From assembly GCA_937919925.1 (NCBI GenBank), contig CALFOT010000076.1, forward strand, positions 2,241-66,240: a DNA stretch of 64,000 bases, written 5' to 3'. Every line of letters begins with the position of its first letter. Position 1 is the first letter of the stretch. The notes under the pieces are model-generated. The model was given only the letters and a program-made list of their open reading frames with translations. It was not told the origin of the DNA and ran no database searches. Of the stretch, positions 1 through 55,504 are shown in pieces. The stretch comes from an uncultured bacterium (GTDB lineage: Bacteria; Planctomycetota; UBA1135). A program made the position numbers and the translations under genes.

Positions 1-748
1 TCGCGACGAACACTTGGGCCATGAAAGCTCCCATGCCCATTGCAGCCCAATATTTGATGACTGCAGTCATCAACGACAAAGTTTACGTTGCGGGAAACAA
101 TGGGACGCTGCAAATTTACACTCCTGTAACGGATTCCTGGAGCTCCGGCCCCGCGATGCCCGCCGGTTGGACACCCACCAGTAACCAAGGAGCTGATTGT
201 GTCGCCGGAAAGTTGATTGGAGTTGCCCGTGATGCCAGCAACACGGCGCGCCTCATTTCTTATGATCCGGCGACTCTGAGCTGGACTCTGTTGCCCTTCC
301 TTCCGTCGAACCGTTGGGCCACCGGCGTTGCGGTCAATCCAAACACGGGCCTCATGCACATCGTGTCGGGTTGGACCGGGGCTTCGTTCTCCGATCTCCA
401 CGAAGCCTACAATCCAGGTGCGCTACGGCTTGACGTCAGTGCGCTGGCGGCGAGTGCGCTCGCCACCCTGCAAACAAGTGGTGGTCGGCCGAACGTGATT
501 GTGGCCTTTCTGGTGAGCTTGAACGGTTTTCAGACCACCATCTACTCTTCGCCGGGCGGATTCGTGACTCTGGATCTCAAGGCCATGCACCAAATTGCTA
601 CCACCTATGCAAATAGCGCTGGCGCGGCCTCTCTTACCCTCGTGGTGCCAGTACGCATGGGGCAGGACGAACGATTTTCTTTCAAGCCGTTGATTTTGCG
701 GGCGGCAGTTTCGGCGTGAGCAACGCGTTCTCGCGAATCGTGAACTAG
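1..748 (+). CDS. Kelch-repeat protein, 5'-partial, with a conserved C-terminal beta-rich domain; apparent -1 frameshift at ~659-662 (uncorrected ORF ends at 719)
   Basis: Frame is open to the window edge (ATNTWAMKAPMP). Kelch motifs KVYVAG, YTPVTDSWSSGPAMP, YDPATLSWTLLP. Shifting frame at the GGGG run gives AGRTIFFQAVDFAGGSFGVSNAFSRIVN* (stop 746-748), matching the C-termini of other proteins in the window. Confidence 0.75.
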
Positions 749-869
749 CTGGAGCGGTTTTTCGAAGGCAAGCGCTGACGCCTTTGTCGATGGGTGGCTA
801 GGCGCTATGGCGTGGCCACACCCTTAAGGCTACGATGGCTTTTCCGTGGTGCATCCACGGTGGCCACCA

Positions 870-2819
870 ATGAGTACGAGTTCTTCATCCGCTAAGCGAC
901 GCATATTCGCAATTGTTTGTTTGGTTGCGTTGGTGATTTTCGTAACTTGGTTTGCCTGGGCTGCGCAACACAATCGCGATTCTTTGAACCTTGCGGAAGC
1001 ACAAATAAACGATGGCAATTGGCATGAAGCCGAAGTGACTTTGTTCGCGCTGCATGGTGGCATCGTTGCTGCAGGCGAAGGGCGCGCTGCAGAACTCCTC
1101 AGCCGCATTGAGCAACACCGCATGGCCATCGCAGCCTCCCCGGAATCCTCATCGCCGCTCGTGGAAGCCCCACCTGTGGAAACCCCACCTGTGCAAGCGC
1201 TGTCCGATTCCGAACCTGAGGTGAATCCTGCGGAGGAAATCTTGTCGCCAGCGGCAAGCGAAGCGTTGGCCAGCGCCGCGGCAGAGGTTCAGGCGCAAAT
1301 CGCCGCGCAAGTAGAACGCGAGCGTCTCAACGCAGTCAACGAACACCTTCTTGCCTATGGATGGGAGATGGTTTGGCCGGGTCCGCATCCTTGGGTGGAG
1401 GCTCTAGAGGCTCCGACAGCGGAACAAATAGGCGAAGGAAAAGCACTGCTCGCGCGTCATCAACTGATCACAGAGTTGCGCGCGCAATGGCCAGGGCCCG
1501 ATTTCCCAACCGAGCTGCAACTCGAACTCCAAGATCCCTTGCGGCAAGAAGACGAGTTGCTGACTTCTTTCAACCAGCGCTTGCTGCAAGAAGGTTGGGT
1601 TGCGGTGTTAACCGATCCGGCCCCATGGGTGACGGCCTTACGCACCCCTAGCCCGCAGCAGCAGGCCGACGGCGGCGCACTGCTTGCGCGGCATGCACTC
1701 AGTGAGGCACTGAAGCCACTGTGGACGATTCCCGCCTTGCCGGCGCAGTTAATTCCCGAGATCCGCAATCCACAACGCACGGAATTCGAAATTCGAGCAG
1801 AGTTTTTACGTCTTTTTCAGGAGGAAATGAGCCAGTCGTCGGCGCGCTTGGAGACCGGGGCTTGGAAGCAAGCAGTCGATGCCAAATCGGCACAAGAGGC
1901 TATGCAAGCGGCAGGCGCCTTAGTGGTTTTGTTGAAGAAGCCTGGCCTTCCCGCTGCGGAAGTTGCCGGGTTACTCAAGCGCGTGCAGGGAATCGAAGCA
2001 GAGGCTCGCACAGTTTTTCAAACGCGCGCTGCCCGCGATGCACGGTTGGCGGAAGAGGGGCTCAATCCATTCCAAGCGCAAGGCTGGACCATCGTAGATC
2101 AAACTGCCGGATATGGTGGCTTTGCAAACAAGCTTTTGGATCCGAACACGGGAATCACTTTCATTTTGGTAGCACCCGGCCAATTTCAAATGGGCTCTCC
2201 AGCTGCCGAGGCCGAACGCGAAGCCGATGAGAAGCCACACCTTGTGAAGATGAGCAAAGGGTTTTATTTAGGCGAGACAGAGGTGACGCAGGCGCAGTGG
2301 AAAAAAATGGTGCCTGGGAATCCGAGTCCAAGCAGTTTTATTGGTGCCGGCCTTCCGGTGGAATCGGTCAGCTGGAATGACTGCCAAGAATTTTTGCAGG
2401 CTGCCGGCAACGGCTATCGCTTGCCCACCGAACAAGAGTGGGAGTATGCCTGCCGAGCTGCGACGTTGACTCCGTTTAGTTATGGCCCAACCATCGATGC
2501 CACGATGGGCAATTTCAACGGGCGGGAGGTTTATGGAGGTGGAGTTGTAGGAAGCCAGGCGAACAAAACCACTCTAGTGGGTAGTTTGCAAGCAAACCCT
2601 TGGGGATTTCAAGACATGCACGGCAACCTTTGGGAATGGTGCTCTGACTGGTATGGCCCTTACTCGGAGCCAGCACCGGAGGCTGGAAGTGAGCGTGTGC
2701 TTCGCGGCGGCGCTTGGAATAGCCACCCAAAATTTTGTCGCGCCGCAAATCGCTATATGGCCGAGCCTGATACGCGCAACTACATCATTGGCTTCCGAGT
2801 TGCCCACGACCTCCCATAG
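870..2819 (+). CDS. Membrane-anchored FGE-sulfatase (SUMF1/EgtB/PvdO-like) domain protein with a tandem 78-aa repeat
   Basis: N-terminal TM helix; C-terminal motifs FQMGS, TEVTQAQW, PVESVSW, RLPTEQEWEYACRA, NPWGFQDMHGNLWEW, RGGAW, GFR. Start could be GTG 846 or ATG 870. Confidence 0.85.
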   Translation: MSTSSSSAKRRIFAIVCLVALVIFVTWFAWAAQHNRDSLNLAEAQINDGNWHEAEVTLFALHGGIVAAGEGRAAELLSRIEQHRMAIAASPESSSPLVEAPPVETPPVQALSDSEPEVNPAEEILSPAASEALASAAAEVQAQIAAQVERERLNAVNEHLLAYGWEMVWPGPHPWVEALEAPTAEQIGEGKALLARHQLITELRAQWPGPDFPTELQLELQDPLRQEDELLTSFNQRLLQEGWVAVLTDPAPWVTALRTPSPQQQADGGALLARHALSEALKPLWTIPALPAQLIPEIRNPQRTEFEIRAEFLRLFQEEMSQSSARLETGAWKQAVDAKSAQEAMQAAGALVVLLKKPGLPAAEVAGLLKRVQGIEAEARTVFQTRAARDARLAEEGLNPFQAQGWTIVDQTAGYGGFANKLLDPNTGITFILVAPGQFQMGSPAAEAEREADEKPHLVKMSKGFYLGETEVTQAQWKKMVPGNPSPSSFIGAGLPVESVSWNDCQEFLQAAGNGYRLPTEQEWEYACRAATLTPFSYGPTIDATMGNFNGREVYGGGVVGSQANKTTLVGSLQANPWGFQDMHGNLWEWCSDWYGPYSEPAPEAGSERVLRGGAWNSHPKFCRAANRYMAEPDTRNYIIGFRVAHDLP

Positions 2820-2912
2820 ATCGCTTCGAGCCTCAAGAGGAAGGTCCGCGCTGGGCTGTTCAAGTTTTGGCCTAGCTCTCTTTCACGGCAGCGATGATAT
2901 GGTCAGCTACCC

Positions 2913-4466
2913 ATGTTGTGCCGCCGCCCCAACTTCTTAACCCTGCTTTGCTGCTTGTTTGCGGCACCCTTGTTTGCGCAACACGTGCACAAACCCGCAC
3001 CTGCGCTGCAGCAACCCGAAGCTCCCACGCCGGAAGAGTCCAGCGTTTCTGCAGAGAGTAGCGCGCCGCAAATCTTCACCACTCAGCACGTCGGTATTTT
3101 CCACGGGCAGGAAGTGGCCTATACGGCAACCGCGGGGGAGACCTTTTTGAAGGCCGAGGATGGCACCCCGCGCGCGAGTATTTTTGCCACAGCCTATGTT
3201 AAAAATGGTGTGCAAGATGCAAGTACCCGGCCAGTGACTTTTTTGTGGAACGGTGGGCCTGGTTCGGCGTCGCTGTGGTTGCACATGGGGGTGTTTGGCC
3301 CGGTGCGTGTGGCGATTCCTAGCGATGCGCGGGACGACGGCGCGCCACCGTATCCCATCGTTGCGAATCCCGGCGCCTTTCTGGATCTGTCAGATATCGT
3401 TTTTATTGATCCGGTTGGTACCGGCTTTAGTCATACGCTCGGTGAAACCGAAGGCAAAGAATTCTTCGGCGTGCAGCAAGACGCCGCCTCCATCGCCCAG
3501 TTTATTCGCCAGTGGATCAGCGATCAGGGGCGTTGGAATTCGCCAAAGTTTATCGGTGGCGAAAGTTATGGCACCACGCGCTCGGCCGCAGTGGTGCACG
3601 AACTTGAGGCTGGCTTTGATGACGTGGCGATTAACGGCATCATTTTGATTTCTACCATTCTCGACTTCAGCATCGAAAATCACACTCCTGGCAATGAGTT
3701 GCCAAACCTGATGCATCTGCCAACTATGGCCGCCACCGCCAAGTTTCACGGCAAAGCCGGCGCGGGAATCCCACTTGCCGAGTTCGTCCAACAAGCGCGC
3801 GAGTTTGCGCTCGGGGAATATGCACATGCACTGCTGCAGGGGGAGAGTCTGCCTGCCGCCGAACGTGCAAAAGTGCGTGCGCGGTTGTCGGCGTTCACCG
3901 GTCTCGGTGAGGAATATCTAGAGCAGACCGATTTGCGCCCGCAGCCGGCGCGCTTTCAAAAGGAGCTACTGCGCGATCGCGGTTTGACCGTGGGCCGTTT
4001 AGATTCCCGTTACACCGGCGTGGATCTGGATGATGCCGGTGAAAACAGTGAAGAAGATCCTTCCTTTTATGGCATCGACGGCGCTTATTCCGCAGCAATG
4101 AATAGTTACTTCCGCAGCGATCTCGCGGTGAAGACCGAGCGTCATTACAACGTGATTGGCGGGCTTGGCGCACCATGGGATTGGGAAGTGCCAGGTTTGC
4201 CATTTAATTACTTCAACGTAGCGCCGTACATCGGCACAGCGATGCGTCAGAACAGCGATCTGCAAGTTTTTGTTGCTGCGGGGTATTACGATTTCGCCAC
4301 CCCGTTTTTTCAGGCGGAATATAGTTTGAACCGCGCTGGTGTGGTTCCAGAGCGCGTGTTTTTTCATTACTACGAAGCCGGCCACATGATGTACATTCAT
4401 CATCCGTCGCTGCAGGCTTTGCAGGAGGATGTACACGCGTTTTTGGCTGCGACTTTGGCACAGTAA
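2913..4466 (+). CDS. Secreted serine carboxypeptidase, peptidase family S10
   Basis: Signal peptide; WNGGPGSAS, IDPVGTGFS, nucleophile motif GESYG, YDFATP, YEAGHM. Confidence 0.92.
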   Translation: MLCRRPNFLTLLCCLFAAPLFAQHVHKPAPALQQPEAPTPEESSVSAESSAPQIFTTQHVGIFHGQEVAYTATAGETFLKAEDGTPRASIFATAYVKNGVQDASTRPVTFLWNGGPGSASLWLHMGVFGPVRVAIPSDARDDGAPPYPIVANPGAFLDLSDIVFIDPVGTGFSHTLGETEGKEFFGVQQDAASIAQFIRQWISDQGRWNSPKFIGGESYGTTRSAAVVHELEAGFDDVAINGIILISTILDFSIENHTPGNELPNLMHLPTMAATAKFHGKAGAGIPLAEFVQQAREFALGEYAHALLQGESLPAAERAKVRARLSAFTGLGEEYLEQTDLRPQPARFQKELLRDRGLTVGRLDSRYTGVDLDDAGENSEEDPSFYGIDGAYSAAMNSYFRSDLAVKTERHYNVIGGLGAPWDWEVPGLPFNYFNVAPYIGTAMRQNSDLQVFVAAGYYDFATPFFQAEYSLNRAGVVPERVFFHYYEAGHMMYIHHPSLQALQEDVHAFLAATLAQ

Positions 4467-4569
4467 GACGGCCGTAGTCGATGCGCAGAACGCGCCGCAT
4501 GCGCCGGAATGCGGCCGTGAATCCTTCGCGTGCCGTCTCCTGTAGGATAGGGCTCCTTGTTTTTAGAGC

Positions 4570-7500
4570 ATGAACTCCGCCTCCCTCTCTGTCCGTGTCG
4601 CCCTCGCAATTGCGTTCGCCGCCCTCACTGCAGTCCTGCCCATTTGGGCAGATTCCAGCGCGAGTGTGAGCGGCATGGCGCAACTTCCAAGCAGCGTGGT
4701 GGCTGCGGAGGAAGTCCGTTACGGTCGTGACATCCGGCCGATTTTGTCCGACCGTTGTTTTCTTTGTCATGGCCCCGATGTCAGCACCCGCGAAGCGGAG
4801 TTGCGCCTGGATACTTTTGACTACGCAACCGCCGATCGTGGTGGTTATGCCGCAATCGTGCCGGGGAATCTAAAGGCCAGTGAGTTGTGGTACCGACTCA
4901 CCACCACGCGCAAGAGTGATGCCATGCCGCCAGCCGATAGCAAGGTGCAGCCGCTCACCGATCACGATAAAGATTTGATCCGGCGTTGGATTGAGCAAGG
5001 CGCCAAGTACGAACCGCATTGGGCTTTTGTGGCGCCAGTCCGTCCGCCGCTGCCGTCGGTCGCGCAGCAAAGTTGGCCGCGCAATGCTCTGGATTCCTTT
5101 CTTTTAGCCGGCATGGAAAGTGCCGGGTTAAAGCCATCGCCACCAGCAGACTCCGCCACTTTGTTGCGCCGCGTATTTTTGGATTTAACCGGCTTGCCGC
5201 CGACTCCAGCCGAACTCGACGCCTTCCTCGCCGATGCGCGGCCGGATGCCTACGAACGAGTTGTGGAGCGTTTGCTGAGTACAGAGCCTTACGTCAGCCG
5301 CTACGCCGAACGTTTGGCAACACCTTGGCTTGATGCCGCACGGTATGCGGATACCAACGGCATTCACATGGATGCCGGCCGTCAGATGTGGGCCTGGCGC
5401 GATTGGGTGTTACGCGCGTTGCGTGATAACCAGCCATTTGATCAGTTCGTTGTGGAGCAACTAGCTGGCGATTTGCTGGCCGACGCCACCTTGGAACAAA
5501 AAGTGGCGAGTGGTTTTCACCGCAATCATGTCATGACTGATGAAGGTGGCGCCATCAATGAGGAATACCTAGTCGAGTATGCAGCCGATCGCACTGCGAC
5601 CACCGGCGCTGTTTTTATGGGTTTAACGGTGCAGTGCGCGCGTTGCCATGATCATAAATTCGATCCGATTTCGCAGCAGGAATACTATTCGCTGTTCGCC
5701 TATTTCAACTCGAATGACGAACCTGGTCTTTATTCACAGTTGCCCGACGCCAACCGGGCCTTTGAGCCGTTTATGCAAGTGCCCACGGCCGAGCAAAGCA
5801 ATCAACAGTTGGAGTTAAACGCGGCGCTGGATAGCTTGACTGCCGAGATGGAGCAGCCATCTGCGCAAGATGCGCAGGCTTTGGAAACCTTCCTCGATTC
5901 GGCGCCCGCCACTTACGGCGTGAGTTGGGCTGCGAGCGAAGTGGTCAGTGCGGAGAGCACGGCGGATTCTTCCTTAACTATTCTGGAGGATCGCTCGGTG
6001 CTGGCTTCCGGCGCGAACCCCAATAAGGAAAGTCACACCATCATCTTGCGCACTCAGCAAACCAACCTACGCTTATTGCTGCTGGAAGCTTTGCAAGATG
6101 ATTCGTTCTTTGAGGGGCGTGTGGGGCGCGCGCCTAACGGTAATGCGGTTTTGTCTTATCTCGAAGTGGAAGCGATTTCTTTGGTCGACGCGCGTCAACG
6201 TCAGCAATTGCACTTCGGCTGGGCGTGGGCCGATTTCGAGCAAGACAACGAAGATTTTGATGTCGTGAATGCTTTAGATCCTGCGTTCCACAAAGTCTGG
6301 GCGGTGGATGCCCACCATGTGGCGGGTGGGCGGAATGCACTTTTTCTTGCGGATCAACCATTCGGTTTTGCTGGCGGCACGGAGTTGCGCGTGGTCTTGC
6401 ATTATCAATCGATGTACGATCAGCACAGTTTCGGACGCGTGCGCTTAACGCCGGGTTCGTTGGGTGCCACTGGACTCGCCGCCTTGCCGGTGGCCGATTC
6501 GCGCTGGTATGGCACTTGGCCTTATACACCCACGGAAGGGGAGGCTGGTTACGAGCAGATTTTTGGCCCCGAAGCTGATGCCCACATTGATTTGGCGAAG
6601 CAATACCCACCGGATGCTTACAGTTGGGTTTTAGTACCCCAAGTGATGGATGGGGTGGTTAACAATGTTTTGCCGGCGGGCAAGAAAGTCAGCTTTGCCG
6701 GCCGTCGGCTATTTGTACCCAGCGCCCGCGAGCTGGAGCTTTCGCTCGGTTCCGACGATGGTTTGCAGGTGTTTGTTGATGGGGAGATGGTTTTTGAAAA
6801 CCGCGTCGACCGTGGCGCCGCAGCGGATCAGGACCGCGTTAAGTTGTCGTTGTCCGCAGGCCTGCACACGGTCGTTTTGAAGATTGTCAACACCGGCGGC
6901 ATTGGTGGTTTGTATTGGCAAGTGCGGCCTCCGGCGGAGGAGCTGTCGGGTGCTTTGGTTTGGTGTTTGGCGCCTCAGGGGGTGCGTGTTGCTGGTGCGA
7001 ACGATTTGGCCAAACGCGTTGCAGAAAATTGGCGCACGCAGCATTCGCCAGCCTACCGCGAGCAAGTAGCCAAAGCGGCAAAACTGCAGGCGCAGTTGGC
7101 TACCCTGACCAGTCTCATCCCACTCACCATGGTCATGAAGGAGTTGGAGCAACCGCGCGCTACTTTTGTCTTGAACCGCGGCTCTTATGACCAGCCGCTG
7201 ATGGATCGGCCCGTCACGCGTGGTGTTCCAGCCGCACTAGGTAAGCTGCCTGCTGAGGCACCCAACGATCGTTTGGGCTTAGCGCTGTGGTTGATTGCCG
7301 ATGAAAACCCACTGCTCGCACGGGTCACCGTCAATCGTTTGTGGGAGATGATCTTTGGCACCGGCATTGTGCGCACGAGTGCAGATTTTGGCTTGCAGGG
7401 AGCGTGGCCGAGCAACCCAGAGTTACTGGATTGGCTTGCCGTGGAGTTTCGCGAAGGCGGTTGGGATGTCAAAGAGATCCTGAAGCAAATGGTCACCAGC

Positions 7501-8247: not shown

Positions 8248-8274
8248 GCCGCAAACACAGAACTTGCTCACCTT

Positions 8275-15827: not shown

Positions 15828-17003
15828 GTGAACAACTCAATTCAACCATCGGACATTCGTGAGGCGCTATTCTCGGGAGCACTGGAGCATTGGTTTCAGC
15901 CCAAAGTTTCCTTCCTTTCCGGGAAGATATCGGGTGGCGAGGCGCTCATCCGTTGGCGCCGCAAAGATGGTTGTGTGCTGCCTGCTGTAGCTTGGCTTCC
16001 GATTGCCAAGAAGCACGACATGATGCAAGAGATTGCCACGGTGATGTTCCCGTTGTTGGCGGACAACATCGCAGCGATTTGTCGCGAAACAACCGACATC
16101 AAAATCGCCTTCAATATGGATGCGGGTGATTTAGAGAGCACCAATATCGTCGACCAATTGTTGTCCGCAGTTCATGCAGGAAAACTCAATCCAGCACAAA
16201 TCGAAATTGAGTTGACGGAAACAGCATTGCCGCGCGACGGCCACGCCATGGAAGACAACATCATGCTTCTGACGGCCACCGGAATATCCTTAGCCATGGA
16301 TGATTTTGGCACAGGCTTTTCTTCCTTGGATACATTGCGGAAATTGCCATTCTCAACGGTCAAGATAGATCAAGGGGTGGTGATGACCATGCAGGATTCG
16401 GTCAAGAGCTCTGCCATTGTTTTATCTAGCATTCGTATGGCGTATGAAATGGGGTTGAATGTGATTGCCGAAGGCGTGGAATCAGAAGAAGTATTTGATA
16501 TTTTACAACAAGCAGGTTGTTCGGAAGCGCAAGGTTTTTGGATTTCCAGAGCGCTGCCGTTAGATCAATTCATTAGCTTCGTAAACAGTGGGAAACGATG
16601 GTTGGCCACGCCCATTGGGCAGCTTCGCCATGTAGAGATTGATCACCTGTTATGGTGCAAAAATATATTGTCCACGGTGTTTGGGAATTCGAACAGCAAC
16701 ATGGACCTCGAGTCCGTACTCGCTATTTCCAACGATCAAACATGCCGCCTCGGAAAATGGCTGGAAGGGGAGAATCACTCTTTTGCCACCATGCCTGAGT
16801 TCCTCAGCCTCACTGGGCCTCACCAAGAAGTTCATAAGGCTGGTTATGACCTAGTTTTCGCCGCGCGCGACGGCGTCAGCATGCGAGAACTCCAAGCCAT
16901 GGCGGTGCACTTTAATCGCAAATCCGAGGCTTTGATGATTGGCCTACAAAGTTTGGAAATTCAAGTATTGATGGCGAGTCTCAACGACGCAACGCTCGCT
17001 TGA
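15828..17003 (+). CDS. EAL c-di-GMP phosphodiesterase with C-terminal CZB zinc-binding domain
   Basis: FQPKV, EALIRW, ELTE, DDFGTGFSSL, KIDQ, AEGVE, AQGF; then DHLLW...CRLGKWL...HQEVH (His/Cys/His/His). Confidence 0.88.
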   Translation: MNNSIQPSDIREALFSGALEHWFQPKVSFLSGKISGGEALIRWRRKDGCVLPAVAWLPIAKKHDMMQEIATVMFPLLADNIAAICRETTDIKIAFNMDAGDLESTNIVDQLLSAVHAGKLNPAQIEIELTETALPRDGHAMEDNIMLLTATGISLAMDDFGTGFSSLDTLRKLPFSTVKIDQGVVMTMQDSVKSSAIVLSSIRMAYEMGLNVIAEGVESEEVFDILQQAGCSEAQGFWISRALPLDQFISFVNSGKRWLATPIGQLRHVEIDHLLWCKNILSTVFGNSNSNMDLESVLAISNDQTCRLGKWLEGENHSFATMPEFLSLTGPHQEVHKAGYDLVFAARDGVSMRELQAMAVHFNRKSEALMIGLQSLEIQVLMASLNDATLA

Positions 17004-17096: not shown

Positions 17097-19709
17097 ATGT
17101 TCCTACCTACTTCCCAATTCCTCCTTCGCCGCCTTGTTTGCGGTGCACTTCCTTTTCTGGCTTTGCTGGTTGCCTGCTCAGTGGAAACGGCGCGTGAATA
17201 CTCTCAAGCCGCGCTAACTGGCACCACGCCGCGTCCCGCCGAATCCGAGGAGAACGAAGAAAACCAACTCGCGCGTATGGAGTGGATGGAAAGTATGCAC
17301 ACGACCGCTCCCGGGTTTGATTGGCGCGCCGAAGAAGAGGCAAACCTGCTGGTAGCGAAAGCCGAGCGCGAGAACGGCTTACTGAATCCCACTGCGAGTA
17401 ACGGCCATTGGAATGAAGTCGGTAGCACCAACTTGGCAGGTAGTGTTTTTGTCACGGTGCCTTCTACCGACGGCACGGAACTCTACATTGGCACTGCGCT
17501 TGGCGGTGTTTTTCGTGGCCCCGCCGATGGCAGTGATTGGCAGGCAATCGGCGATGGTGTGTACGGCGGTGCCAATGTGTTGCTGACCGTTCCTCCCGTG
17601 GGTGGCGGCCAGGATATCGTGCTGCGTGGCACGACCAACGCTTTGTGGCGCAGCGCTGACGGCGGCCTTACTTGGCAAATGCCTAGTGGTATGGTTGGCT
17701 TCACCACTTTCAAGCGCTTGTTGAAATTGGATGATGCGCAACAAACCATTTTGGCATTGGTGTGGAAATCCAACGCCTGGCAAGTGTTCCGCTCGACGGA
17801 CCGCGGTTTGTCATTTAGCAACGTGCAGATTCTCAACGGTCAGGCTGACATCTGGACTCCGCGCACTGGCCTCGGCGACGTATTCCTGTTTGAGAACAAT
17901 CGCATTTTGCGCAGCAGTGATAAAGCCACCACTTTTGCTTCCTTCGGTAATACTCTGGGTGTTACGCCAGCGGATGTTCGCTTTGGTGGTCATGAATCTT
18001 CCGGCAACACCACTTTTAGCGTTGCCGCGAATGTTGCCGGCACTTGGCAGCTCTATCGCACGGTGAACTCAGGCAGCAGTTGGACCAATCCGCGCGATCT
18101 GCCCGATATGTGGGGAGCATTTTGCACTTCCGCCACGGACTCTGATTTGTTGGTTTATGGCGGCGTGCATTTAATGATCACACATGATGGCGGCAACACT
18201 CTCTTTCAAGCGATGAACCCGTGGTGGGAGCATCCCGCCAATCGTCAGCATCGTTTGCATGCGGACATCATGGGGGTGGATCTCATCGCCGATCCTACGC
18301 TTGCGGTCGGAGAGCGGTGGTTCATCAACTGCCACGGCGGCACCTATGAGAGTACGGATCAGTTTGCTACGGTGGATTGGCTAACTGGCGATGGTTTGGG
18401 AGTCAGTCAGTACTACAGCACCCACACCAGTCGTCGGGATCCCAAATATTTGCACGCTGGTTCGCAAGATCAGGGTTATCAATCTACGGCTCTTGGACCA
18501 CCAGCTAGTAGCGGTTCTTGGGCATCGTTCTTGGAAGACATCACTGGCGATTACGGGCATCTTTCTTCCAGTGATGGCAGCCACGATTTGGTGTACTCGG
18601 ATTACCCAGGATTTGTCTTAGTGGTATCGCATGAGCCCGTTCATTCGGTTTGGCAAGTGGGCTTTCCCAGCGGATTTGCAGGCCAGTGGTTGCCGTTTAT
18701 GGTTTCCGATCCACAGAACAAAGGCGAATTCTATCTCTGTGGAACGCGCATTTGGCATTATCAGCGGATTGGTGGTTCGGGTTCTTGGAGCCACACCCAA
18801 CTGGGCACGCAGACTTTTTCGAATCCGGTCACAGCACTGGCATTCTCTCCTATTGACCCCAATTACGCATGGTGTACCACCAGCACCGGCAAGATTTTTT
18901 ACAGCACCGATCGTGGCATCACCTGGACCCAATCTGCGAATAATGGCCCCGGCGCACATTATTTTTATGGCACGACCATTGTGGCTTCTTCGAAGTACCT
19001 CTCCGAAGTGTGGGTGGCTGGTTCCGGCTATTCCAATGCACCAGTGGTTTACTCCGTCAATGGTGGCTTGACTTTCAACGACCGGCGCAACGGCCTACCG
19101 AATACGTTGATTTACGGCATGTGTGAAGCCAACGACGGCACCGGCACCATGTATGCAGCCGGTCAAAGTGGCGCCTATGAATACGATGCGCCAACGCAAA
19201 CTTGGTCGAACTTACTCGGCTCGGAAGCTCCCCTCACCACCTACTGGTCGGTTGAAGCGGTGCCCTCTCAAAACATCATTCGCTTCGGTACTTATGGTCG
19301 TGGCATTTGGGATTACTACCCACAGACAGCGGGCTTCTTCCCATATGGAGAACTTCGCGCAGACCCCATGTTTTTGCAGCTTGAACCCAGTGATCGGCCG
19401 TTAATGGGCAACACCATCACCTTCAGCACTTCCGGTTTGGAATCTTATGCCCACGGCTTCCTCTCCGTGTGTTCCGCTGCGGACGATAGCCCAATGTTTG
19501 GCGGCAGCGTTTTGGTTGATCTCGCGCAGGAAGTCGCGCGCGTGCCTTTCACCGCTAACATTTGGGGTAATTCCAGTTTTAGCCTGACTGTTCCGAACAA
19601 CCCAGCCATCCTCGGCAGAGAGTTTTTCTTACAAATTGCCGCGCGTGACACCCGCGAGCCACTCGGGTGGTCCATGAGTCACGGCTTACGCGCCGTCATT
19701 GGTCAGTAG
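17097..19709 (+). CDS. Exported BNR/Asp-box beta-propeller protein (VPS10/glycosidase-like) with conserved C-terminal domain
   Basis: Possible lipobox LLVAC; Asp-boxes SADGGLTW, STDRGLSF, STDRGITW, SVNGGLTF; HAD, GSQDQG, GTYGRGIW. Confidence 0.8.
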   Translation: MFLPTSQFLLRRLVCGALPFLALLVACSVETAREYSQAALTGTTPRPAESEENEENQLARMEWMESMHTTAPGFDWRAEEEANLLVAKAERENGLLNPTASNGHWNEVGSTNLAGSVFVTVPSTDGTELYIGTALGGVFRGPADGSDWQAIGDGVYGGANVLLTVPPVGGGQDIVLRGTTNALWRSADGGLTWQMPSGMVGFTTFKRLLKLDDAQQTILALVWKSNAWQVFRSTDRGLSFSNVQILNGQADIWTPRTGLGDVFLFENNRILRSSDKATTFASFGNTLGVTPADVRFGGHESSGNTTFSVAANVAGTWQLYRTVNSGSSWTNPRDLPDMWGAFCTSATDSDLLVYGGVHLMITHDGGNTLFQAMNPWWEHPANRQHRLHADIMGVDLIADPTLAVGERWFINCHGGTYESTDQFATVDWLTGDGLGVSQYYSTHTSRRDPKYLHAGSQDQGYQSTALGPPASSGSWASFLEDITGDYGHLSSSDGSHDLVYSDYPGFVLVVSHEPVHSVWQVGFPSGFAGQWLPFMVSDPQNKGEFYLCGTRIWHYQRIGGSGSWSHTQLGTQTFSNPVTALAFSPIDPNYAWCTTSTGKIFYSTDRGITWTQSANNGPGAHYFYGTTIVASSKYLSEVWVAGSGYSNAPVVYSVNGGLTFNDRRNGLPNTLIYGMCEANDGTGTMYAAGQSGAYEYDAPTQTWSNLLGSEAPLTTYWSVEAVPSQNIIRFGTYGRGIWDYYPQTAGFFPYGELRADPMFLQLEPSDRPLMGNTITFSTSGLESYAHGFLSVCSAADDSPMFGGSVLVDLAQEVARVPFTANIWGNSSFSLTVPNNPAILGREFFLQIAARDTREPLGWSMSHGLRAVIGQ

Positions 19710-47328: not shown

Positions 47329-47435
47329 TGTTCTAGGGAGCTGCTGGGTGAAGAGCGAAATCTGCGCCGACAGGATAACTCCGGCGGCTATCAAATTGTG
47401 GTCAAACAAAAACTCCTTTCCGGCGTATAGGTGCC

Positions 47436-47651
47436 ATGAAACACCGCAACGTTATCCACCTCACCTTTTCCGCTTCCCTGCTCCTTGTTTGCTTGGCTCC
47501 TGTTTCATGCACCATGCCAGATCAGCAAGGCTCTAGCGTGCGCAACTCCTATCCACCCATTGTGCAAACCGACACCGGCGGCACCCCTATGTTGCAAGAC
47601 AGCGGCTCCGGCTTGGAAAACGCCATGCGCGGCGTCAAAAGCAAAGACTGA
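47436..47651 (+). CDS. Small putative lipoprotein
   Basis: Basic N-terminus, hydrophobic stretch, PVSC lipobox; fills the gap between two genes. Confidence 0.5.
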
Positions 47652-47674
47652 GCCGCAGTCGCTAGGATAGTGGC

Positions 47675-50044: not shown

Positions 50045-51115
50045 CCAGAACTTCGCAGCAGCTTTCGCCACGCCATTCACCAGCAAAGTGAGTTGGTGTT
50101 CGCCTACGTAATGTTTGCGTGTGCTGCGGTCGGCGAAGGAATGTTTGCGTTGCCCCGCGCGTGAATTTTCATTGGATTCTGATTCTGATATTTGGAAAAT
50201 CTTGCGCGCGCCACGGCCATGGGGGCGCGCGAAGTCGATGCGGTATTCCATGCGTATTTTCCCCAATGGAGTGTTGCTGTACAAGCTCCAGGCAAAGTTT
50301 AGGGTGCCGCCCAGAGGGATGGAATCTTCAGTGAGTTGAAAATCAACCATTACGATATGTTGCGCATCACGGAAACCAAATAGCTGCATCGCTCCCACAT
50401 CGCCCGATTTCAACAACGTGCGGCATGCGTGTTTCACCAAGCGATCGCCATCTTTTGATTTACCTTTCCATGCAGTGGCGATTTCTAACACCAGAGATGG
50501 ATGGTCTTTGGAAATATCATTCAAGTTATTTGCCACACTGCGGCGTACATATTCGCTCGTATCAGACCGCAGAGCTTCAAGGATTGGCAACAACGGTTTT
50601 GGATCCCTCTGGAAATCCGGCAAGTTCATCGCCCAAGGTAAAAGAGGCCTGCAACCCTCACTCGCTAAACGCCGTACATGCTCATTCTCATCGTGAGTCC
50701 ATTCCAACATCACCTTTAGGAAACGCGGCGCATCCGCTTTTAAAAACGGCCGCACGGCAAATTCAGAGCTACCAAAGCGCGTCATCCAATGCAGAGCAGC
50801 GATAGATTCTTCCCAATAATCTAAACCATATTGCTCGACGAAATCAGGGAAAAACATTGACATATAGCCATCGAAGTTCGCCGCGGCAGCACGCACAATG
50901 GGCAGCGCCTCTAAATACTCCGGCGGTAGCGCCGTACGCAAACACGTGCAAATTCGCCGCATGCGGCCCTTCAACTCGAGTTCTTCCCAGCCGTCGCGAA
51001 ACACGTCTTCCACCAACGTCGCTTCGTTAATTCCAGCAGGTGCGCAAACAGAAACGACCGACGCTAATCTTTGCAGATAAGCGCGGTCGTACTGGTTTTT
51101 GAGGGCTTCGGCCAT
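50036..51115 (-). CDS. DNA alkylation repair glycosylase (AlkC/AlkD HEAT-like family)
   Basis: LELKGR, SSEFAVRPF, EHVRRLASEGCRP, SEYVRRSVANNLNDISKDHP, C-terminal TRKHY domain. Confidence 0.9.
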   Translation of the reverse strand: MAEALKNQYDRAYLQRLASVVSVCAPAGINEATLVEDVFRDGWEELELKGRMRRICTCLRTALPPEYLEALPIVRAAAANFDGYMSMFFPDFVEQYGLDYWEESIAALHWMTRFGSSEFAVRPFLKADAPRFLKVMLEWTHDENEHVRRLASEGCRPLLPWAMNLPDFQRDPKPLLPILEALRSDTSEYVRRSVANNLNDISKDHPSLVLEIATAWKGKSKDGDRLVKHACRTLLKSGDVGAMQLFGFRDAQHIVMVDFQLTEDSIPLGGTLNFAWSLYSNTPLGKIRMEYRIDFARPHGRGARKIFQISESESNENSRAGQRKHSFADRSTRKHYVGEHQLTLLVNGVAKAAAKFWLV

Positions 51116-51143
51116 CGGGAAGGCCAAAGCCTAGCGTATTTTT

Positions 51144-52763
51144 CTACGGCAACAAACGTAGAGAAATCTTATTGGTCAAATCATCGGTGCTGCCAAAACG
51201 TAGGCCTTGCACATGGACTAACATGCCGAGGAGTCCACTCCGGACAGGGATGGTAAGTGGCATCGACAAACCGCCAAGTGGAATCGTGTTTGGACCGAAG
51301 CGGGTGATTTCAGTGCCAAGATCGATTTCGGTGATTCCAAATGGAGTGACCGAACTGCCGAGGGCAGCGGCAACAGAGAAAAGCAAAGTATTCGCGCCAG
51401 CTGGACTCTCCACGCTAAGGGATCCACCAAGCTGCGGATAACCCAGCAAGTGCAGAGTTTGCTCAGCGCCATCGATGCAAGTCAAGGCACCACCGTTACC
51501 GAAAGTGTTCGCGTGCACTGCTTTGGAACCAGCCAAGATGACGTCGCCATCGGCATCCAAATCCACCGAGAAAGCAGAACCACCGAGGTGAATGGAGCTC
51601 AGTAAGTTGCCTTGGTCATCCATAGAGAAAACTTCGGGAGTGGCACTCATCGAATCTCCCCAAGAGCACCCCGCCAGAACATCGCCAGCATCGCTCATCG
51701 CGAGACCCGAGCTGATGAGTTGGTAAGCGGTGCCCGGTGCATCAAACATTTGTGAGTTCAAATCTAAGCCCGTGCTGACATCCATGATGCCAATTTCGAT
51801 GTGGTCGGAGGAAGGTGAGTAACGCTGCACGCCAAACCCGGCGCGGCTGCCGTCTTGATTCAACGCCGCGCGGCCGGTGTAACTTGCTCCTGGATTTGCG
51901 CGGAAGGCCACTTGGCTCCATACACCTGGCGTAATCTCACGCCGCACAAATAGGCCACTAAAAGTGCCGTACGCAACGGTTTTGCCGTCACCAGAAATTG
52001 CGTGCGCATCAAAACTGGCACCGATAGCGATGGTGGTTAACGCAGCTCCGCTGTTCAAATCGTAAACCACTGCGGTGCCGTTGTAGAGCGCGGCGTAAAG
52101 ACGTGTACCAGTATCATCGATTGCGCCGAAACGCAGATGGCCAGCTGCTGGTACATCCCAACTGCCCAGAGAAAGTCCACTGCGATCCCAAACGCGCAGG
52201 TGCAGTAGTCCGCTGGCATTGGAGGCGGCGGCAACAATGCGGCTACCGTCATCGCTGACGCCAATCATGCTGGCGTACACGTTTCCGGTGGTTGGGAAGG
52301 TTGCCGTCCAATCGGCAATGCCGCTTCCTGCAGAATCCCAAACAGAAACCGTCGACTCAAAATTGGGGCCGCCGAGGTCGTTGGTGATGATGGCGGCGGC
52401 AGTGTGATGGCGATCTGCCATAGCAACTTTCAGTGCCGAGGCACCGACGGCCGAGTTTTCGAAAATTGGTGTGGCGGAGCCCGTTGCCCAGCAAGCCACG
52501 CCTTCATTGTTCAAATCCTTGCCACCGATAGCTGCGGCACCGGAATCACCAACTGCGGCGCTGGAGCCAATCCATGCTAAACCTCCATCGGTCACTTGCC
52601 AGCGCGGGGTACTGACGACCGCGAGCGAATTGGAGAACGGCAGCTTGGGTAAACCAGCATGGGTTTGGTTGACCAAGAAGGCGCCTTCAGGGCGCACCTC
52701 CATCTGTGTACTTTGCAGTACCGGGGATTGGAGTAGTAGAGTGATCAAGGGGAGGAGCAACAT
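51144..52763 (-). CDS. Secreted WD40-like beta-propeller protein with conserved C-terminal domain
   Basis: SD GGAGAG; hydrophobic leader; repeated VSDDGS, IDDTGT, ISGDGK, LNQDGS, MSDAGD, LDADGD blade motifs. Confidence 0.72.
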   Translation of the reverse strand: MLLLPLITLLLQSPVLQSTQMEVRPEGAFLVNQTHAGLPKLPFSNSLAVVSTPRWQVTDGGLAWIGSSAAVGDSGAAAIGGKDLNNEGVACWATGSATPIFENSAVGASALKVAMADRHHTAAAIITNDLGGPNFESTVSVWDSAGSGIADWTATFPTTGNVYASMIGVSDDGSRIVAAASNASGLLHLRVWDRSGLSLGSWDVPAAGHLRFGAIDDTGTRLYAALYNGTAVVYDLNSGAALTTIAIGASFDAHAISGDGKTVAYGTFSGLFVRREITPGVWSQVAFRANPGASYTGRAALNQDGSRAGFGVQRYSPSSDHIEIGIMDVSTGLDLNSQMFDAPGTAYQLISSGLAMSDAGDVLAGCSWGDSMSATPEVFSMDDQGNLLSSIHLGGSAFSVDLDADGDVILAGSKAVHANTFGNGGALTCIDGAEQTLHLLGYPQLGGSLSVESPAGANTLLFSVAAALGSSVTPFGITEIDLGTEITRFGPNTIPLGGLSMPLTIPVRSGLLGMLVHVQGLRFGSTDDLTNKISLRLLP

Positions 52764-52804
52764 CTCTCCATTGTGCCACAAAATTTACAACTGAGGATGG
52801 AAGA

Positions 52805-53326
52805 TTACTTCAGCGAGCGCTGGCCACGCGCCCGCCGCCGTTCATTCAAGGCATACAAAGCAGCCGGCTCCAAGGCGAGAAATTTGATGAGCTGCGAGTT
52901 GGAAATGCGAAAAGCAATTGCGGTGCGGCCGAGGTCGTCTTTTTCCAGAGCCAGCCGATCCAGCACTTCGGCCAGTAGGCCAGGGAAATCCTCATGGGTG
53001 GGATTGACGCGGATTTTGTCGCCACGCAGGCGCTCCATCCACTCCCAAGACGGCTCGTAGGCTCCCGGCGGCATAAAATCGGCGTCCTCCAGAGGGCTGC
53101 GGTAGAGCAAAGCCAGCTTGATGCGCAAACGATACAATGCTTCTAGCTTGTTTTCTAACTGAGAGCGCCGTTCTGTGGCCATAGCCTGAATACCAGTGGG
53201 CTCATGCGTGGCTCGAATGGCTGTAGAAACCTTGTTGCGATGCTGCCCTCCAGGCCCGCTGGAGCGCGTGGGCTGGATAATGACCTCTTTCCCCAATTCC
53301 TCAGCAGATTTCTTGGATGGATGCAC
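52805..53326 (-). CDS. Peptide chain release factor-like (RF-1 domain, GGQ) protein
   Basis: [19 protein letters not shown]; basic C-terminal tail. Confidence 0.85.
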
Positions 53327-53434
53327 TTCTAAATTCTATCCTTCCCTGAAGGCGAAGGGGGTTTCACAGGTTTTCGGTCCGAAACTAGGAACTTCAACCT
53401 CGCTCGCGGCCTCGTACCGCTAGACCTTAACACG

Positions 53435-55504
53435 ATGATTAGCCAAATCCTTCTACTTTCCTTTGCGCAGCTACAGGGCGCCGACGCGCTCTCCACCCCA
53501 ACTTTTCATTGGGTGGACACTGGTTTTGATCGTGCGCTCTTCCAAATAGAGGATGTCGATGCCAGCAGCAGCTTCGCCATGCGTATCAATGATGATTTAG
53601 CCAGTAAGGCTGGCGTCATCCCGGCTCCAACCCCAGGCTACCTCTTGTCGTCGACGGTGATTGTGGAAACCAAAGAAGTGGCCTCCTTGCAGGCACTAGC
53701 GAGCAGCATTACCGAAAGTTGGGTCGAGCCACTGGAAGGCGTTCCAGGTTTTCAGTTGGTCCACACGAGCTCGGTGCTTGCGGGCCTTGATTTGACTCTC
53801 GCCTTGGAGGCTTATTTCGGCGCCGAAGCGGTGTACCTTGATGCGGAGCGCCCATTGGCAACGCGCACCGTTCCCTCAGATCCAGGTTTTGGCAATCAAT
53901 GGCACCTGCGCAATAATCTCAATGTGATTGCCGATGCGAACGTGGAAGGCGCATGGACTGCTGGCTACACCGGTACTGGCCAAGTCATCGGCATCTTGGA
54001 TGGTGGAGTGCAACTTTCGCACCCGGATCTCAACAATAACTACAACAGTGCCGCCAGTCGGACCGGCAGTCAAAGTAGCCACGGTACTTCTTGTGCAGGG
54101 GTAGCCGCCGCCGAAGGCAATAACGGCGCTGGGGGTGTAGGCGCGGCTTACGATGCCCAATGGTCTAATCTTTATTACGGCAGCAGCTCGACTACGGCCA
54201 CCAACTTTGGCTGGCGTAACGATCTCAATGACATCAAAACGAATTCTTGGGGCCCAGCAGACAACGGCACGATTTCGTACATGACTAGCGCCGAGCGCTC
54301 TGCTTTAGAAGGTGCTGTGTTTACCGGTCGCGGCGGTCTGGGCACGGTGTTTACTTGGGCAGCGGGTAACGGCGGCACGGCCGATCGTGTGGAATACGAT
54401 CCCTACGCCTCCAGCCGCCTCACTTTGGCGATTGGCGCGATTGGCGATGCCGATGTACGCGCCTATTACAATGAAACGGGTTCTTCGATGACGGTTGTGG
54501 CTCATTCGAGTGGCAATAACCGCGGCATTTACACCACCACCACCGGTAGCAGTTACACCTCTAGCTTTGGCGGTACTTCGGCGGCGAGTCCACTGGCCGC
54601 AGGCGTGGTGGCCTTGATTTTGGATGCAAACCCCGCGCTCACTTGGCGTGATGTGACCGGTGTTTTGATTGATTCGGCGCGCAAAAATGATGCCGGTAAC
54701 GGCAACTGGCTGGTCAATGCCACCGGCCGCGATGTGAATATCAACTATGGCTTTGGCGCAGTGGATGCTGAGGCCGCGGTGCAAACGGCACTGACTTGGG
54801 TGAACTATCCAGCAGAATCTTCTGCCACCACTGGGGTGGTCGCTGTCGGTCAAACCATCCCTGACAACAACACCACTGGCTTGACCCGTACGGTCAACAT
54901 TCCGACCGACATCACGGTCGAGGCCGTGGAGTTGAAGATGAATATCCTCCACAACTATGTTGGTGATTTGTACATCAAGTTGACGGCACCGAGTGGTACG
55001 GGTTCGATCTTGACGAAGGTGCGTAATGATGGCACGGACAACTACAACAACTTCATTTTTACTTCCTTACGGCCTTTCGGCGAATCCTCGTTGGGGGATT
55101 GGATCGTAGAAGTTTCGGATCAATCAGCCGGTACCACCGGCACGTGGACCAACTTCACGCTTTCGGTGTTTGGTCACGATGGTGGTGGCAATGCTCTCAC
55201 CTTGTCGTCGCCGGTGGTGACGGCCGGCGCAGTAGCGAACTTCAGTGTGACAAACGGTAATGCGAGTGCCTCCACTTGGCTTGCCTATTCGTTGACTGGA
55301 TTAGGAAGTTTCAACGTTGGTCCACTGGGTGTGACTTTGGGCCTTAACAACCCTCAGCAAATCGGTTCCATGCAAACCACCAATGCTGCCGGTGCCACGG
55401 ATTTCCTCATCAGCGTTCCGGCAGGTGCCACTGGCCACGCTTACTGGGTGCAGTCTTTGCAGGCTGGGAAAGTCAGCAATATCGTCAGCGGTACGGCGCA
55501 ATAA
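53435..55504 (+). CDS. S8 kexin/furin-like serine protease with P domain and conserved C-terminal domain
   Basis: ILDGG...HPDL, HGTSCAG, NSWG, AAGNG, GTSAASP, LTWRDV, YGFG; P domain HNYVGDL...GDW. Confidence 0.93.
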   Translation: MISQILLLSFAQLQGADALSTPTFHWVDTGFDRALFQIEDVDASSSFAMRINDDLASKAGVIPAPTPGYLLSSTVIVETKEVASLQALASSITESWVEPLEGVPGFQLVHTSSVLAGLDLTLALEAYFGAEAVYLDAERPLATRTVPSDPGFGNQWHLRNNLNVIADANVEGAWTAGYTGTGQVIGILDGGVQLSHPDLNNNYNSAASRTGSQSSHGTSCAGVAAAEGNNGAGGVGAAYDAQWSNLYYGSSSTTATNFGWRNDLNDIKTNSWGPADNGTISYMTSAERSALEGAVFTGRGGLGTVFTWAAGNGGTADRVEYDPYASSRLTLAIGAIGDADVRAYYNETGSSMTVVAHSSGNNRGIYTTTTGSSYTSSFGGTSAASPLAAGVVALILDANPALTWRDVTGVLIDSARKNDAGNGNWLVNATGRDVNINYGFGAVDAEAAVQTALTWVNYPAESSATTGVVAVGQTIPDNNTTGLTRTVNIPTDITVEAVELKMNILHNYVGDLYIKLTAPSGTGSILTKVRNDGTDNYNNFIFTSLRPFGESSLGDWIVEVSDQSAGTTGTWTNFTLSVFGHDGGGNALTLSSPVVTAGAVANFSVTNGNASASTWLAYSLTGLGSFNVGPLGVTLGLNNPQQIGSMQTTNAAGATDFLISVPAGATGHAYWVQSLQAGKVSNIVSGTAQ

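Follow-up and report, generated by a model that had tools for sequence, protein, structure and literature searches.

The four C-terminal tails that drew attention in the window (the whole stretch of 64,000 nucleotides analysed here) are members of one protein domain family of about 100 residues. In the source genome this domain closes about fifty exported proteins, and it probably marks an undescribed surface-targeting route for them, since it takes the place that a tail for secretion or anchoring has in other bacteria.

Four copies of the domain in the window

The source genome is a marine Planctomycetota MAG of 2.9 Mb that is 87.4% complete. Four ORFs in the window, and only these, carry the domain: a Kelch protein, a BNR/sortilin-like protein, a protein of 545 aa and an S8 protease. 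The initial annotation had proposed that their tails share a domain, and this is upheld by HMM and hhalign comparisons, strongly for the S8 and Kelch tails, while the BNR and 545-aa (WD-like) tails are divergent yet significant. The features are as follows.

1..748, + strand: 3' part of the Kelch-repeat gene (Kelch_1, 5.5e-31 on the whole ORF)
423..748, + strand: Kelch C-terminal domain, interrupted in the window allele (HMM)
659..662, + strand: GGGG run, frameshift site in the Kelch tail (cross-assembly comparison)
17097..19709, + strand: BNR/sortilin-Vps10-like protein, 870 aa, with a lipoprotein-type leader (Sortilin-Vps10, 1.1e-9)
19389..19706, + strand: BNR C-terminal domain, divergent copy (HMM, hhalign, AlphaFold)
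51144..52781, - strand: 545-aa protein with a hydrophobic N-terminus, without a Pfam family (best Pfam match E 0.1)
51147..51455, - strand: C-terminal domain of the 545-aa protein, divergent copy (HMM, hhalign)
53435..55504, + strand: S8 subtilase with a proprotein-convertase P-domain, 689 aa (Peptidase_S8 1e-33, P_proprotein 3.7e-16)
55199..55501, + strand: S8 C-terminal domain, typical copy (HMM, 81.9 bits, E 4e-23)

The HMM was iterated from the S8 tail, leaving out the BNR and WD-like tails, and was run on 23,627 six-frame ORFs. The S8 copy stops 0 to 2 residues ahead of the stop codon. With a model made without them, the WD-like tail is found at E 8.2e-5 and the BNR tail at E 1.4e-3. Profile-profile alignment with hhalign gives 92.7% (E 4.4e-7) for seven WD-orthologue tails against 41 core tails, 69.7% (E 4.2e-5) for three BNR-orthologue tails against the core, and a probability of 93.1% for the WD tail against the BNR tail. 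The BNR tail is modelled by AlphaFold with a pLDDT of 87.5, the loop of the middle hairpin (residues 35-52) being of low confidence. Matches to the 545-aa protein occur in 12 of 21 genomes searched (source genome counted); outside the source genome there are 13, all of which reach to within 6 residues of the query end. The earlier label of "WD40-like propeller" for this protein is not borne out by Pfam, whose best match has E 0.1.

The Kelch gene has its start at position 1655 of contig C76, upstream of the window. Its tail is a copy of the domain, as first read, but it is not one continuous ORF: frame 3 stops at 719, and GRTIFFQ...VSN is read only after a switch to frame 2, which runs up to 748, a switch that the initial annotation did not mention. 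The frame-3 part alone scores 50.9 bits (E 2e-13), and the tail read through with X at the break scores 72.9 bits (E 3e-20). Among contigs from four metagenome runs, three are identical to the window at 659 and one is two letters shorter; in the shorter allele 423-748 is a single frame with the VP...GRT...Q...SN motifs of the family. The split over two frames is therefore due to two extra G in the run at 659-662. A DNA search of 20 relatives found no orthologue of the Kelch gene.

The export-like leaders noted at the outset are seen again in all three complete genes. The lipobox Cys of the BNR protein, a predicted lipoprotein, is kept in all three orthologues (3/3), the S8 protease has a short, hydrophobic and conserved leader, and the 545-aa protein has its hydrophobic N-terminus. 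A clear signal peptide is predicted for the Kelch protein too.

Size, conservation and distribution of the family

In the source genome 51 ORFs carry the domain at E<1e-3 (HMM), some 2% of a crude gene count of roughly 2,450, with best E-values down to 1e-36. Even as a lone phmmer query, the S8 tail brings up another 18 ORFs in this genome (E<1e-3). Among 1.84 billion public proteins there are 5,424 cluster representatives at E<=1e-3, 1,579 of them at E<=1e-10. The consensus over 247 domains (G66 98%, P75 98%, Q86 87%, [ST]96 98%, N97 83%) agrees with the motif originally drawn from the four tails. Invariant residues are Gly, Pro, Ser, Gln and Asn; the best-conserved positions are mostly Gly and Pro, i.e. 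structural, and aromatic conservation is limited to Y31 and position 84, so that there is no conserved aromatic platform.

Pfam and NCBIfam models give no match on the four window tails (E<=1). A Pfam scan of 43 tails at E<=10 revealed no family common to them, PF04151, CBM, PKD, FN3, Big and dockerin families included, and the view that the tail fits no named family thus stands. In the open literature, to which the search was confined, no account of the domain was found.

The scan of the genome and of Planctomycetota that the initial annotation had suggested recovers the family in 73 of 401 sampled Planctomycetota genomes. Presence is all-or-none by taxonomic family, for example 8/8 in each of f14 and f25, 0/23 in f15 and 0/20 in f7. 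Several of the sampled genomes that are assembled into one or two contigs hold 4-11 scored copies. Named database matches are nearly all Planctomycetota MAGs, so that the domain is indeed centred on a lineage, as had been supposed. The search for related loci was run on a tight subfamily of 12 sequences, and reaches close relatives only.

Copies of the domain may be 70-94% identical on passengers that have no BLAST similarity to each other; conversely, there are passengers that are 91.5% identical, yet their domain copies are just 50.5% identical. Over 45 copy pairs the median pS is 0.64 and the median pN 0.16 (dN/dS about 0.13). The constraint on the domain is strong, purifying and independent of the passenger, and the module has been swapped between genes.

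Position, export and passengers

The domain is terminal (no more than 5 residues from the stop) in 47 of the 51 ORFs of the source genome, and is the last domain in 172 of 176 database proteins. A strict C-terminal location, as first envisaged, applies to this great majority but not to all: two or three tandem copies are present in 20 of the 176 database proteins, the domain follows straight after the signal peptide in one genome ORF (on contig C82) and in two database proteins, and at least one protein consists of a signal peptide and the domain, without other cargo.

The expected co-occurrence with signal peptides was observed. A strong N-terminal hydrophobic segment is found in 34 of 45 full-length carriers, compared with 223 of 600 control genes, and it is followed by a small-residue-Q motif in 32 of these 34 carriers vs 75 of the 223 controls.

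Passengers are mutually unrelated and of surface or secreted type. They include peptidases (S8, M28, M14, M12, M10 and M36) and PAD_porph, C-type lectins, cupredoxins, cytochromes, GSDH, FG-GAP, PD40, Kelch and BNR proteins. NCBIfam models add HAF repeats, choice-of-anchor B (182.9 bits) and choice-of-anchor J, the last with three proteins above the threshold. The periplasm is the usual place of some of these passengers, such as cupredoxins, c-type cytochromes and GSDH.

Predicted fold

AlphaFold, given 43 tails, folds all 102 residues of the S8 tail (102/102) into nine strands with a pLDDT of 96.3. The predicted structure is a beta-sandwich of the Ig/FN3 type, with the last strand lying within the fold. 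Assignment to this class rests on the two-sheet model and on structural alignments of 72-94 residues with FN3, Ig and macroglobulin domains (Z 7.6-9.5); the top matches listed by VIA-align (maximum Z 9.5) are cellulase FN3/X1 modules, macroglobulin, invasin/intimin Ig domains and esterase N-terminal domains. Foldseek gave no match to the domain model in the PDB at E<=1e-3, and no T9SS CTD, FlgD-Ig or cohesin chain is among the matches listed by either program. This fold is very common and tells nothing on function.

The apoproteins of neocarzinostatin and C-1027 are the lone PDB match at the level of sequence profiles, a weak one below significance (E 0.0018), and they also stand near the top of the Foldseek list, with E about 0.01 and TM 0.51-0.59. 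They differ in being stand-alone chromophore carriers of actinomycetes, and the likeness most likely reflects just the shared Ig-like topology.

Because tandem, post-signal-peptide and domain-only copies exist, the domain is an autonomous folded module, different in kind from a linear C-terminal signal such as PEP-CTERM. The original suggestion of a secretion or attachment signal is supported in part: the domain is unnamed, lineage-centred, terminal, linked to signal peptides and, on homologues of one passenger, found in the slot of T9SS-type tails (see below), and it may act in secretion or attachment.

Comparison with known sorting and anchoring systems

A close parallel in arrangement is offered by the type A CTD of T9SS (Por_Secre_tail, PF18962/TIGR04183, and the FlgD_ig-type PF13860), a beta-sandwich of about 80-100 folded residues that closes very diverse, Sec-exported cargo and is present in tens of copies per genome. 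The domain shares with it the copy number and the extreme C-terminal position on diverse cargo of the Sec pathway, and is probably similar to it in fold; the cargo lists overlap (S8, M14, M28 and M36 peptidases, the PAD_porph enzyme, lectins). Of the 120 best homologues of the choice-of-anchor B passenger, the domain is found on 74, PF18962 or PF13860 on 14, both on none and neither on 32. On these homologues, which make up one passenger family, the domain fills the slot of the T9SS-type tail and the two are mutually exclusive. In sequence, however, there is no profile similarity: 14 genuine T9SS-type tails against 41 core tails give 0.1-0.4% by hhalign, where the control gives 99.7%. The domain further differs in having tandem and N-terminal copies and in being centred on Planctomycetota, whereas T9SS is centred on the Bacteroidota group. 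TIGR04183 has no match in the source genome, and SprA/Sov, PorV and GldM/PorM (TIGR04189, NF033710, TIGR03517) are not found in this 87.4%-complete genome, although two of these models were silent in controls as well.

PEP-CTERM/exosortase, LPXTG, GlyGly-CTERM and MYXO-CTERM systems also place a C-terminal tag on proteins with signal peptides, and choice-of-anchor and HAF-repeat proteins are passengers of these short signals as well. Those signals are tripartite (motif, helix, basic tail) and of 20-35 residues, in contrast to a folded domain of 100 residues without a transmembrane helix. Neither PEP-CTERM (PF07589) nor exosortase (PF09721) is matched in the source genome at its 87.4% completeness. 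Across the 401 genomes exosortase occurs in 29/73 carriers vs 139/328 non-carriers, i.e. there is no association, and a complementary distribution is ruled out.

Pre-peptidase C-terminal (PPC) and PKD domains are beta-sandwiches too, and in marine bacteria they stand once or twice at the C-terminus of secreted hydrolases. They differ from the domain, which gives no HMM match to them, has a far wider passenger range and is far more conserved among paralogues.

In behaviour we think that the dockerin of the cellulosome fits best, by analogy. It too is a small, nearly always C-terminal module on dozens of unrelated secreted enzymes per genome; it falls into sequence subtypes, is now and then doubled or displaced, and stays on the protein, binding without a covalent link, as we suppose for the domain. 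Dockerins consist of helical repeats that bind calcium, unlike the domain, which is all-beta in the model and has no Pfam dockerin match (43 tails, E<=10); nor did the analysis come upon a cohesin-like receptor or scaffold.

Proposed function and alternatives

The explanation that we favour, with modest assurance, is that in some Planctomycetota exported proteins have the domain in common as their address or docking module. An N-terminal signal peptide would carry the protein through Sec, and the C-terminal sandwich domain would then fold. One common partner in the envelope, either an outer-membrane translocon or a surface receptor or polymer, would recognise it, and this recognition would bring the passenger, be it an enzyme, a lectin or a redox protein, to the cell surface or hold it there. 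From these data we infer the surface destination, the existence of the partner, and whether the domain is kept (docking) or removed (sorting). As tandem, N-terminal and cargo-less copies exist, we lean towards a retained, non-covalent docking module rather than a cleaved signal. A bolder form of the proposal, in which the domain would be the cargo tag of an undescribed Planctomycetota sorting or surface-display system that parallels T9SS, has its own outer-membrane translocon or receptor and, in marine lineages rich in carriers, serves about 2% of the proteome, is put forward only tentatively.

The neighbourhoods of carrier genes (196 neighbours) held no cognate translocon, sortase-like enzyme or receptor. 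Recurrent there were only FG-GAP proteins, OPT transporters, Exo_endo_phos proteins (nucleases/phosphatases), CarboxypepD_reg proteins and aminoacyl-tRNA synthetases.

Several observations run counter to an address or docking role. No partner was seen near the carriers (196 neighbours); tandem, N-terminal and domain-only copies are met more often in modules for binding or spacing than among sorting signals; the best-conserved positions are structural (Gly, Pro); cupredoxin, c-type cytochrome and GSDH passengers belong, as a rule, to the periplasm; the BNR carrier is already predicted to be a lipoprotein; and the mutual exclusivity with T9SS-type tails is known from one passenger family.

Alternatively, the domain could be an accessory module comparable to PKD, FN3, CBM-like or Ig-like domains, which binds ligands (seawater particles or polymers) or spaces catalytic domains, and has no sorting role. 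The Ig/FN3-like fold with its best structural matches (Z 7.6-9.5), the tandem copies (20/176) together with the N-terminal ones, and the failure to find cognate machinery among the 196 neighbours all agree with this. Such modules vary in position, however, while the domain comes last in 47/51 and 172/176 proteins; it has no Pfam CBM, PKD, FN3 or Big match (43 tails, E<=10) and no conserved aromatic platform, its cupredoxin and cytochrome passengers have no polymer substrate, and on one passenger family it excludes T9SS-type tails. We regard a mere binding or spacing role as rather unlikely.

A C-terminal extension that assists secretion and is cut off once the protein has been exported, like the PPC domain of Vibrio and Pseudoalteromonas proteases, is more doubtful still. 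It might act as a folding aid or be recognised by one of the secretin-based systems, of which five are indicated by secretin genes in the 2.9-Mb genome. The domain is indeed terminal on proteases and other exoenzymes, and PPC domains, too, are single or doubled at C-termini. Against such an extension, PF04151 and all other families are unmatched (43 tails, E<=10), many carriers (lectins, cupredoxins, choice-of-anchor proteins) are not enzymes in need of a pro-domain, and the domain-only protein and the N-terminal copies do not suit a C-terminal extension that is cleaved.

That there is no true shared domain, and that compositional bias or chance hydrophobic alternation in beta-rich tails produced the likeness, might be argued from the four window tails, which are just 20-29% identical and fail to find each other pairwise (phmmer), but such an artefact is refuted by the HMM E-values (to 1e-36 in the genome), the database counts (5,424 cluster representatives, 1,579 of them at the stricter threshold), the AlphaFold confidence (pLDDT 96.3) and the hhalign support for both divergent tails, and deserves practically no credence.

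Significance

How proteins are transferred across or onto the outer membrane in Planctomycetota is poorly known, and a tag on about fifty exported proteins per genome is a direct handle on this transport. The putative address or docking domain defines a likely surface proteome, including peptidases that would feed oligopeptide uptake in these planktonic cells, and it could be used as bait for its partner. As there are 5,424 cluster representatives without a Pfam or NCBIfam entry, a family model would annotate thousands of tails of "hypothetical" proteins. Its strong conservation on unrelated passengers would make the domain a clear example of how a module evolves to suit a partner common to all its carriers.

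The four tail-bearing proteins

All four ORFs that the initial annotation named as bearers of a common C-terminal domain of about 100 residues (the tail) are present in the window.

Tail-bearing proteins (carriers) of the window
First ORF of the window: Kelch protein, 3' part
17097–19709: BNR protein, 870 aa, with Sortilin-Vps10/BNR repeats
51144–52781, minus strand: WD-like protein, 545 aa, without a significant Pfam family
53435–55504: S8 protease, with Peptidase_S8 and P_proprotein domains

Their neighbours are unrelated housekeeping genes. Also encoded in the window are a 657-aa protein (846–2819), which begins with a hydrophobic segment, continues through a long repetitive region and ends in an FGE-sulfatase domain, and a fusion of an EAL phosphodiesterase with a chemoreceptor zinc-binding (CZB) domain (15828–17003). 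No Pfam or NCBIfam model lies over any of the four tails (E≤1), in agreement with the earlier remark that they could not be assigned to a named family.

Pairwise identity among the four tails is only 20–29%, and phmmer finds no mutual matches between them; despite this, the proposal of a shared domain is supported by profile methods. In the genome containing the window (G000), the S8 tail alone recovers many paralogues by phmmer, and an HMM iterated from it converged at 46 ORFs. The BNR and WD-like tails were left out of this HMM and, scored with filters off against the whole six-frame ORF set, reach E-values of 1.4e-3 and 8.2e-5, respectively; the corresponding values are 4e-23 for the S8 tail and 3e-20 for the Kelch tail, whose broken frame was bridged with an X. 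Profile-profile comparison with 41 typical copies (core tails) gives 92.7% (E 4.4e-7) for the tails of seven WD-like orthologues and 69.7% (E 4.2e-5) for those of three BNR orthologues, while WD-like and BNR tails match each other at 93.1%. By these HMM scores and profile matches, all four tails belong to a single family, with two typical and two divergent members.

The Kelch tail, originally placed at 423–748, is a member of the family but not a single ORF: frame 3 closes at 719 and the domain's final third is read in frame 2, to 748, a frame change that had gone unmentioned. Contigs from four runs span 400–800. Three match the window exactly, and the fourth is two letters shorter at 659, within a GGGG run (659–662) that it reads as GG; with this deletion, 423–748 is a single open frame including the family's terminal motifs. 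Of the three assemblies with the frameshifted allele, which come from different studies, two may be the window's source and one is independent. Since the break is found in several assemblies and the intact form in another, it is not merely a reading error of the window but a real polymorphism or recent lesion in the population, as seen in contigs from which allele frequencies cannot be read.

Copies in the genome

G000 comprises 2.89 Mb in 138 contigs and is 87.4% complete. A profile built from an alignment of 43 tails detects 51 ORFs at E<1e-3 among its 23,627 six-frame ORFs, equal to some 2% of a crude gene count of roughly 2,450. The strict C-terminal location that had been anticipated holds in 47 of the 51, where the tail ends no more than 5 residues from the stop; the remaining four comprise the Kelch gene and C41:38747–39508, both broken, one copy with a longer tail and one N-terminal copy. 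Carriers are spread across 26 contigs with a few tandem arrays (e.g. on C110). Eight sit no more than 300 nt from a contig end (C1, C39, C62, C66, C71, C85, C89), so that 51 is a minimum; assembly probably breaks at the repeated tail, and copy number is hence underestimated.

One subfamily, of about 13 copies, joins tails of 70–94% identity to passengers (the carriers minus their tails) without detectable similarity. Tail exchange is evident between neighbouring choice-of-anchor J genes on C110 (L002 and L003 at C110:71277–73178; L019 at C110:74214–75179): one gene pair has 306 nt of tail DNA that is 100% identical and passengers that are 66% identical, while a pair with 91.5% identical passengers has tails of only 50.5% identity. 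Over 45 tail pairs the median pS is 0.64 (synonymous sites near saturation) and pN 0.16, so that dN/dS is about 0.13. Given such near-saturation together with low pN, it is selection, and not recent conversion alone, that maintains the likeness of the tails. The most conserved positions among 247 domains are Gly and Pro turns, Y31, S32, Q86 and [ST]96–N97, and of 203 terminal copies 75 end in Q and 64 in L.

Export signals and passengers

The suggested co-occurrence with signal peptides is borne out as an enrichment: a simple test of hydrophobicity detects a signal-peptide-like N-terminus in 34 of the 45 full-length carriers, versus 223 of 600 control genes, and several of the eleven carriers that it scores negative also have N-termini resembling signal peptides when inspected by eye. 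A small-residue-Q motif follows the hydrophobic leader in 32/34 carriers versus 75/223 controls. Carrier signal peptides nearly always end in small-x-small-Q or small-Q (e.g. L002, L008, L036 and the Kelch gene at C76:1733), reminiscent of the Q-rule of exported proteins in Bacteroidota. The leader of the BNR protein (17097–17190) is of the lipoprotein type, its Cys conserved in 3/3 orthologues; were the tail an anchor, this protein would be tethered at both ends.

The passengers in G000 are mutually unrelated.

Passengers of the G000 carriers
Peptidases: S8, M28, M14, M12, M10, M36
Other enzymes: Porphyromonas-type peptidylarginine deiminase; PQQ-type sugar dehydrogenase; metallophosphatase
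Redox proteins: two cupredoxins; EB_dh/cytochrome c protein; multihaem cytochrome
Lectins and CBM: C-type lectins; CBM56 protein
Repeat proteins: FG-GAP, PD40, LVIVD, Kelch, BNR

Further passengers from NCBIfam are three choice-of-anchor J proteins over cut-off, one HAF-repeat protein and one choice-of-anchor B protein (182.9 bits vs a cut-off of 100), families so named because the C-terminal sorting signals of their members differ between lineages. At two loci (C36:64327–66192 and C89:28833–30947) OPT oligopeptide transporter genes adjoin carrier genes, which fits surface proteolysis feeding peptide uptake.

Distribution and fold

A profile search of 1.84 billion proteins returned 5,424 cluster representatives at E≤1e-3, of which 1,579 pass E≤1e-10. 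The HMM scan that had been proposed for the genome and the phylum finds, besides the 51 ORFs of G000, matches at E≤1e-5 in 73 of 401 sampled Planctomycetota genomes (49/243 among high-quality ones); presence is all-or-none by family, and copy numbers per genome are capped, 12 candidates having been scored in each. Named database records come from MAGs of Planctomycetota or Phycisphaerales and bear the annotation 'hypothetical protein', apart from two matches under MAG labels of other phyla (Thermodesulfobacteriota, SAR202), and the neighbours in the ESM Atlas are clusters without names, most of them from Planctomycetota. The window's first kilobase recurs on seawater and aquatic metagenome contigs from several studies. 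The result listings of a full-text literature search contain no description of such a domain in Planctomycetota.

Among 176 database proteins (150 from the above search, 26 from a further one) the tail forms the protein end in 172. In two of the four non-terminal cases it follows immediately on the signal peptide. Two or three full copies, either tandem or separated, occur in 20 proteins, and one protein of 130 aa consists of a signal peptide and the domain, with no cargo. Post-signal-peptide copies precede a Kelch propeller or other domains, and another protein combines a hydrophobic N-terminal segment with three copies (unusual architectures: L072 at C82:1600–3264 of G000; database proteins P0032, P0078, P0128, P0002).

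AlphaFold2, given the 43-tail alignment, places 102/102 residues of the S8 tail in a nine-strand beta-sandwich (pLDDT 96.3, pTM 0.85). The final strand is formed by the last 15 residues, so the model has no unstructured tail or transmembrane helix. The model of the BNR tail keeps this strand order at pLDDT 87.5, its middle loop being weak. Foldseek, which had been suggested for comparison with the T9SS CTD, FlgD-Ig and cohesin folds, gives no match to the tail model at E≤1e-3; VIA-align reaches Z up to 9.5 against FN3, Ig, macroglobulin and similar domains, which is the level of a common topology. The only match in a PDB sequence-profile search is the C-1027 apoprotein (E 0.0018), and the first Foldseek rows for 55196–55501 include neocarzinostatin and C-1027 (E about 0.01), both weakly indicating an enediyne-chromoprotein apoprotein fold.

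Relation to T9SS-type tails and function

Among the top 120 homologues of the choice-of-anchor B passenger, 74 have the new domain and 14 a T9SS-type tail (PF18962, Por_Secre_tail, or PF13860, FlgD_ig-type); none has both, and 32 have neither by these criteria. The new domain thus occupies the slot of a known sorting tail. The 14 T9SS-type tails have no profile similarity to it (0.1–0.4%), compared with 99.7% between the two T9SS-type kinds themselves, which rules out a diverged T9SS tail. Por_Secre_tail, SprA, PorV, GldM, exosortase and PEP-CTERM gave no match in G000, in searches of a genome 87.4% complete and with some controls silent, and its carriers have no recurrent envelope gene among their neighbours. 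G000 has five secretin genes (C93, C36, C92 and two on C10, the latter ORFs of 874 and 893 aa lying 9 kb apart). Profiling for a cognate sortase, another earlier suggestion, yielded no partner in exosortase: over the 401 genomes its presence shows neither association nor complementarity with the domain (29/73 carriers vs 139/328 non-carriers).

The main rival reading takes the tail for an ordinary accessory domain that binds or spaces, which would account for the fold and the tandem copies but leaves the strict terminal position, the mutual exclusion with T9SS-type tails and the conservation of the tail unexplained. Terminal position, signal peptides, the range of passengers, this exclusivity and passenger-independent constraint point instead to a module that would be read by one common, putative partner and serve as a cell-surface address or docking tag. 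From its tandem, N-terminal and cargo-less copies, the tail is an autonomous folded module. The same copies are more in keeping with a docking domain that is retained than with a signal that is cleaved, and the predicted behaviour of the tail on the planctomycetal cell surface would then be dockerin-like.
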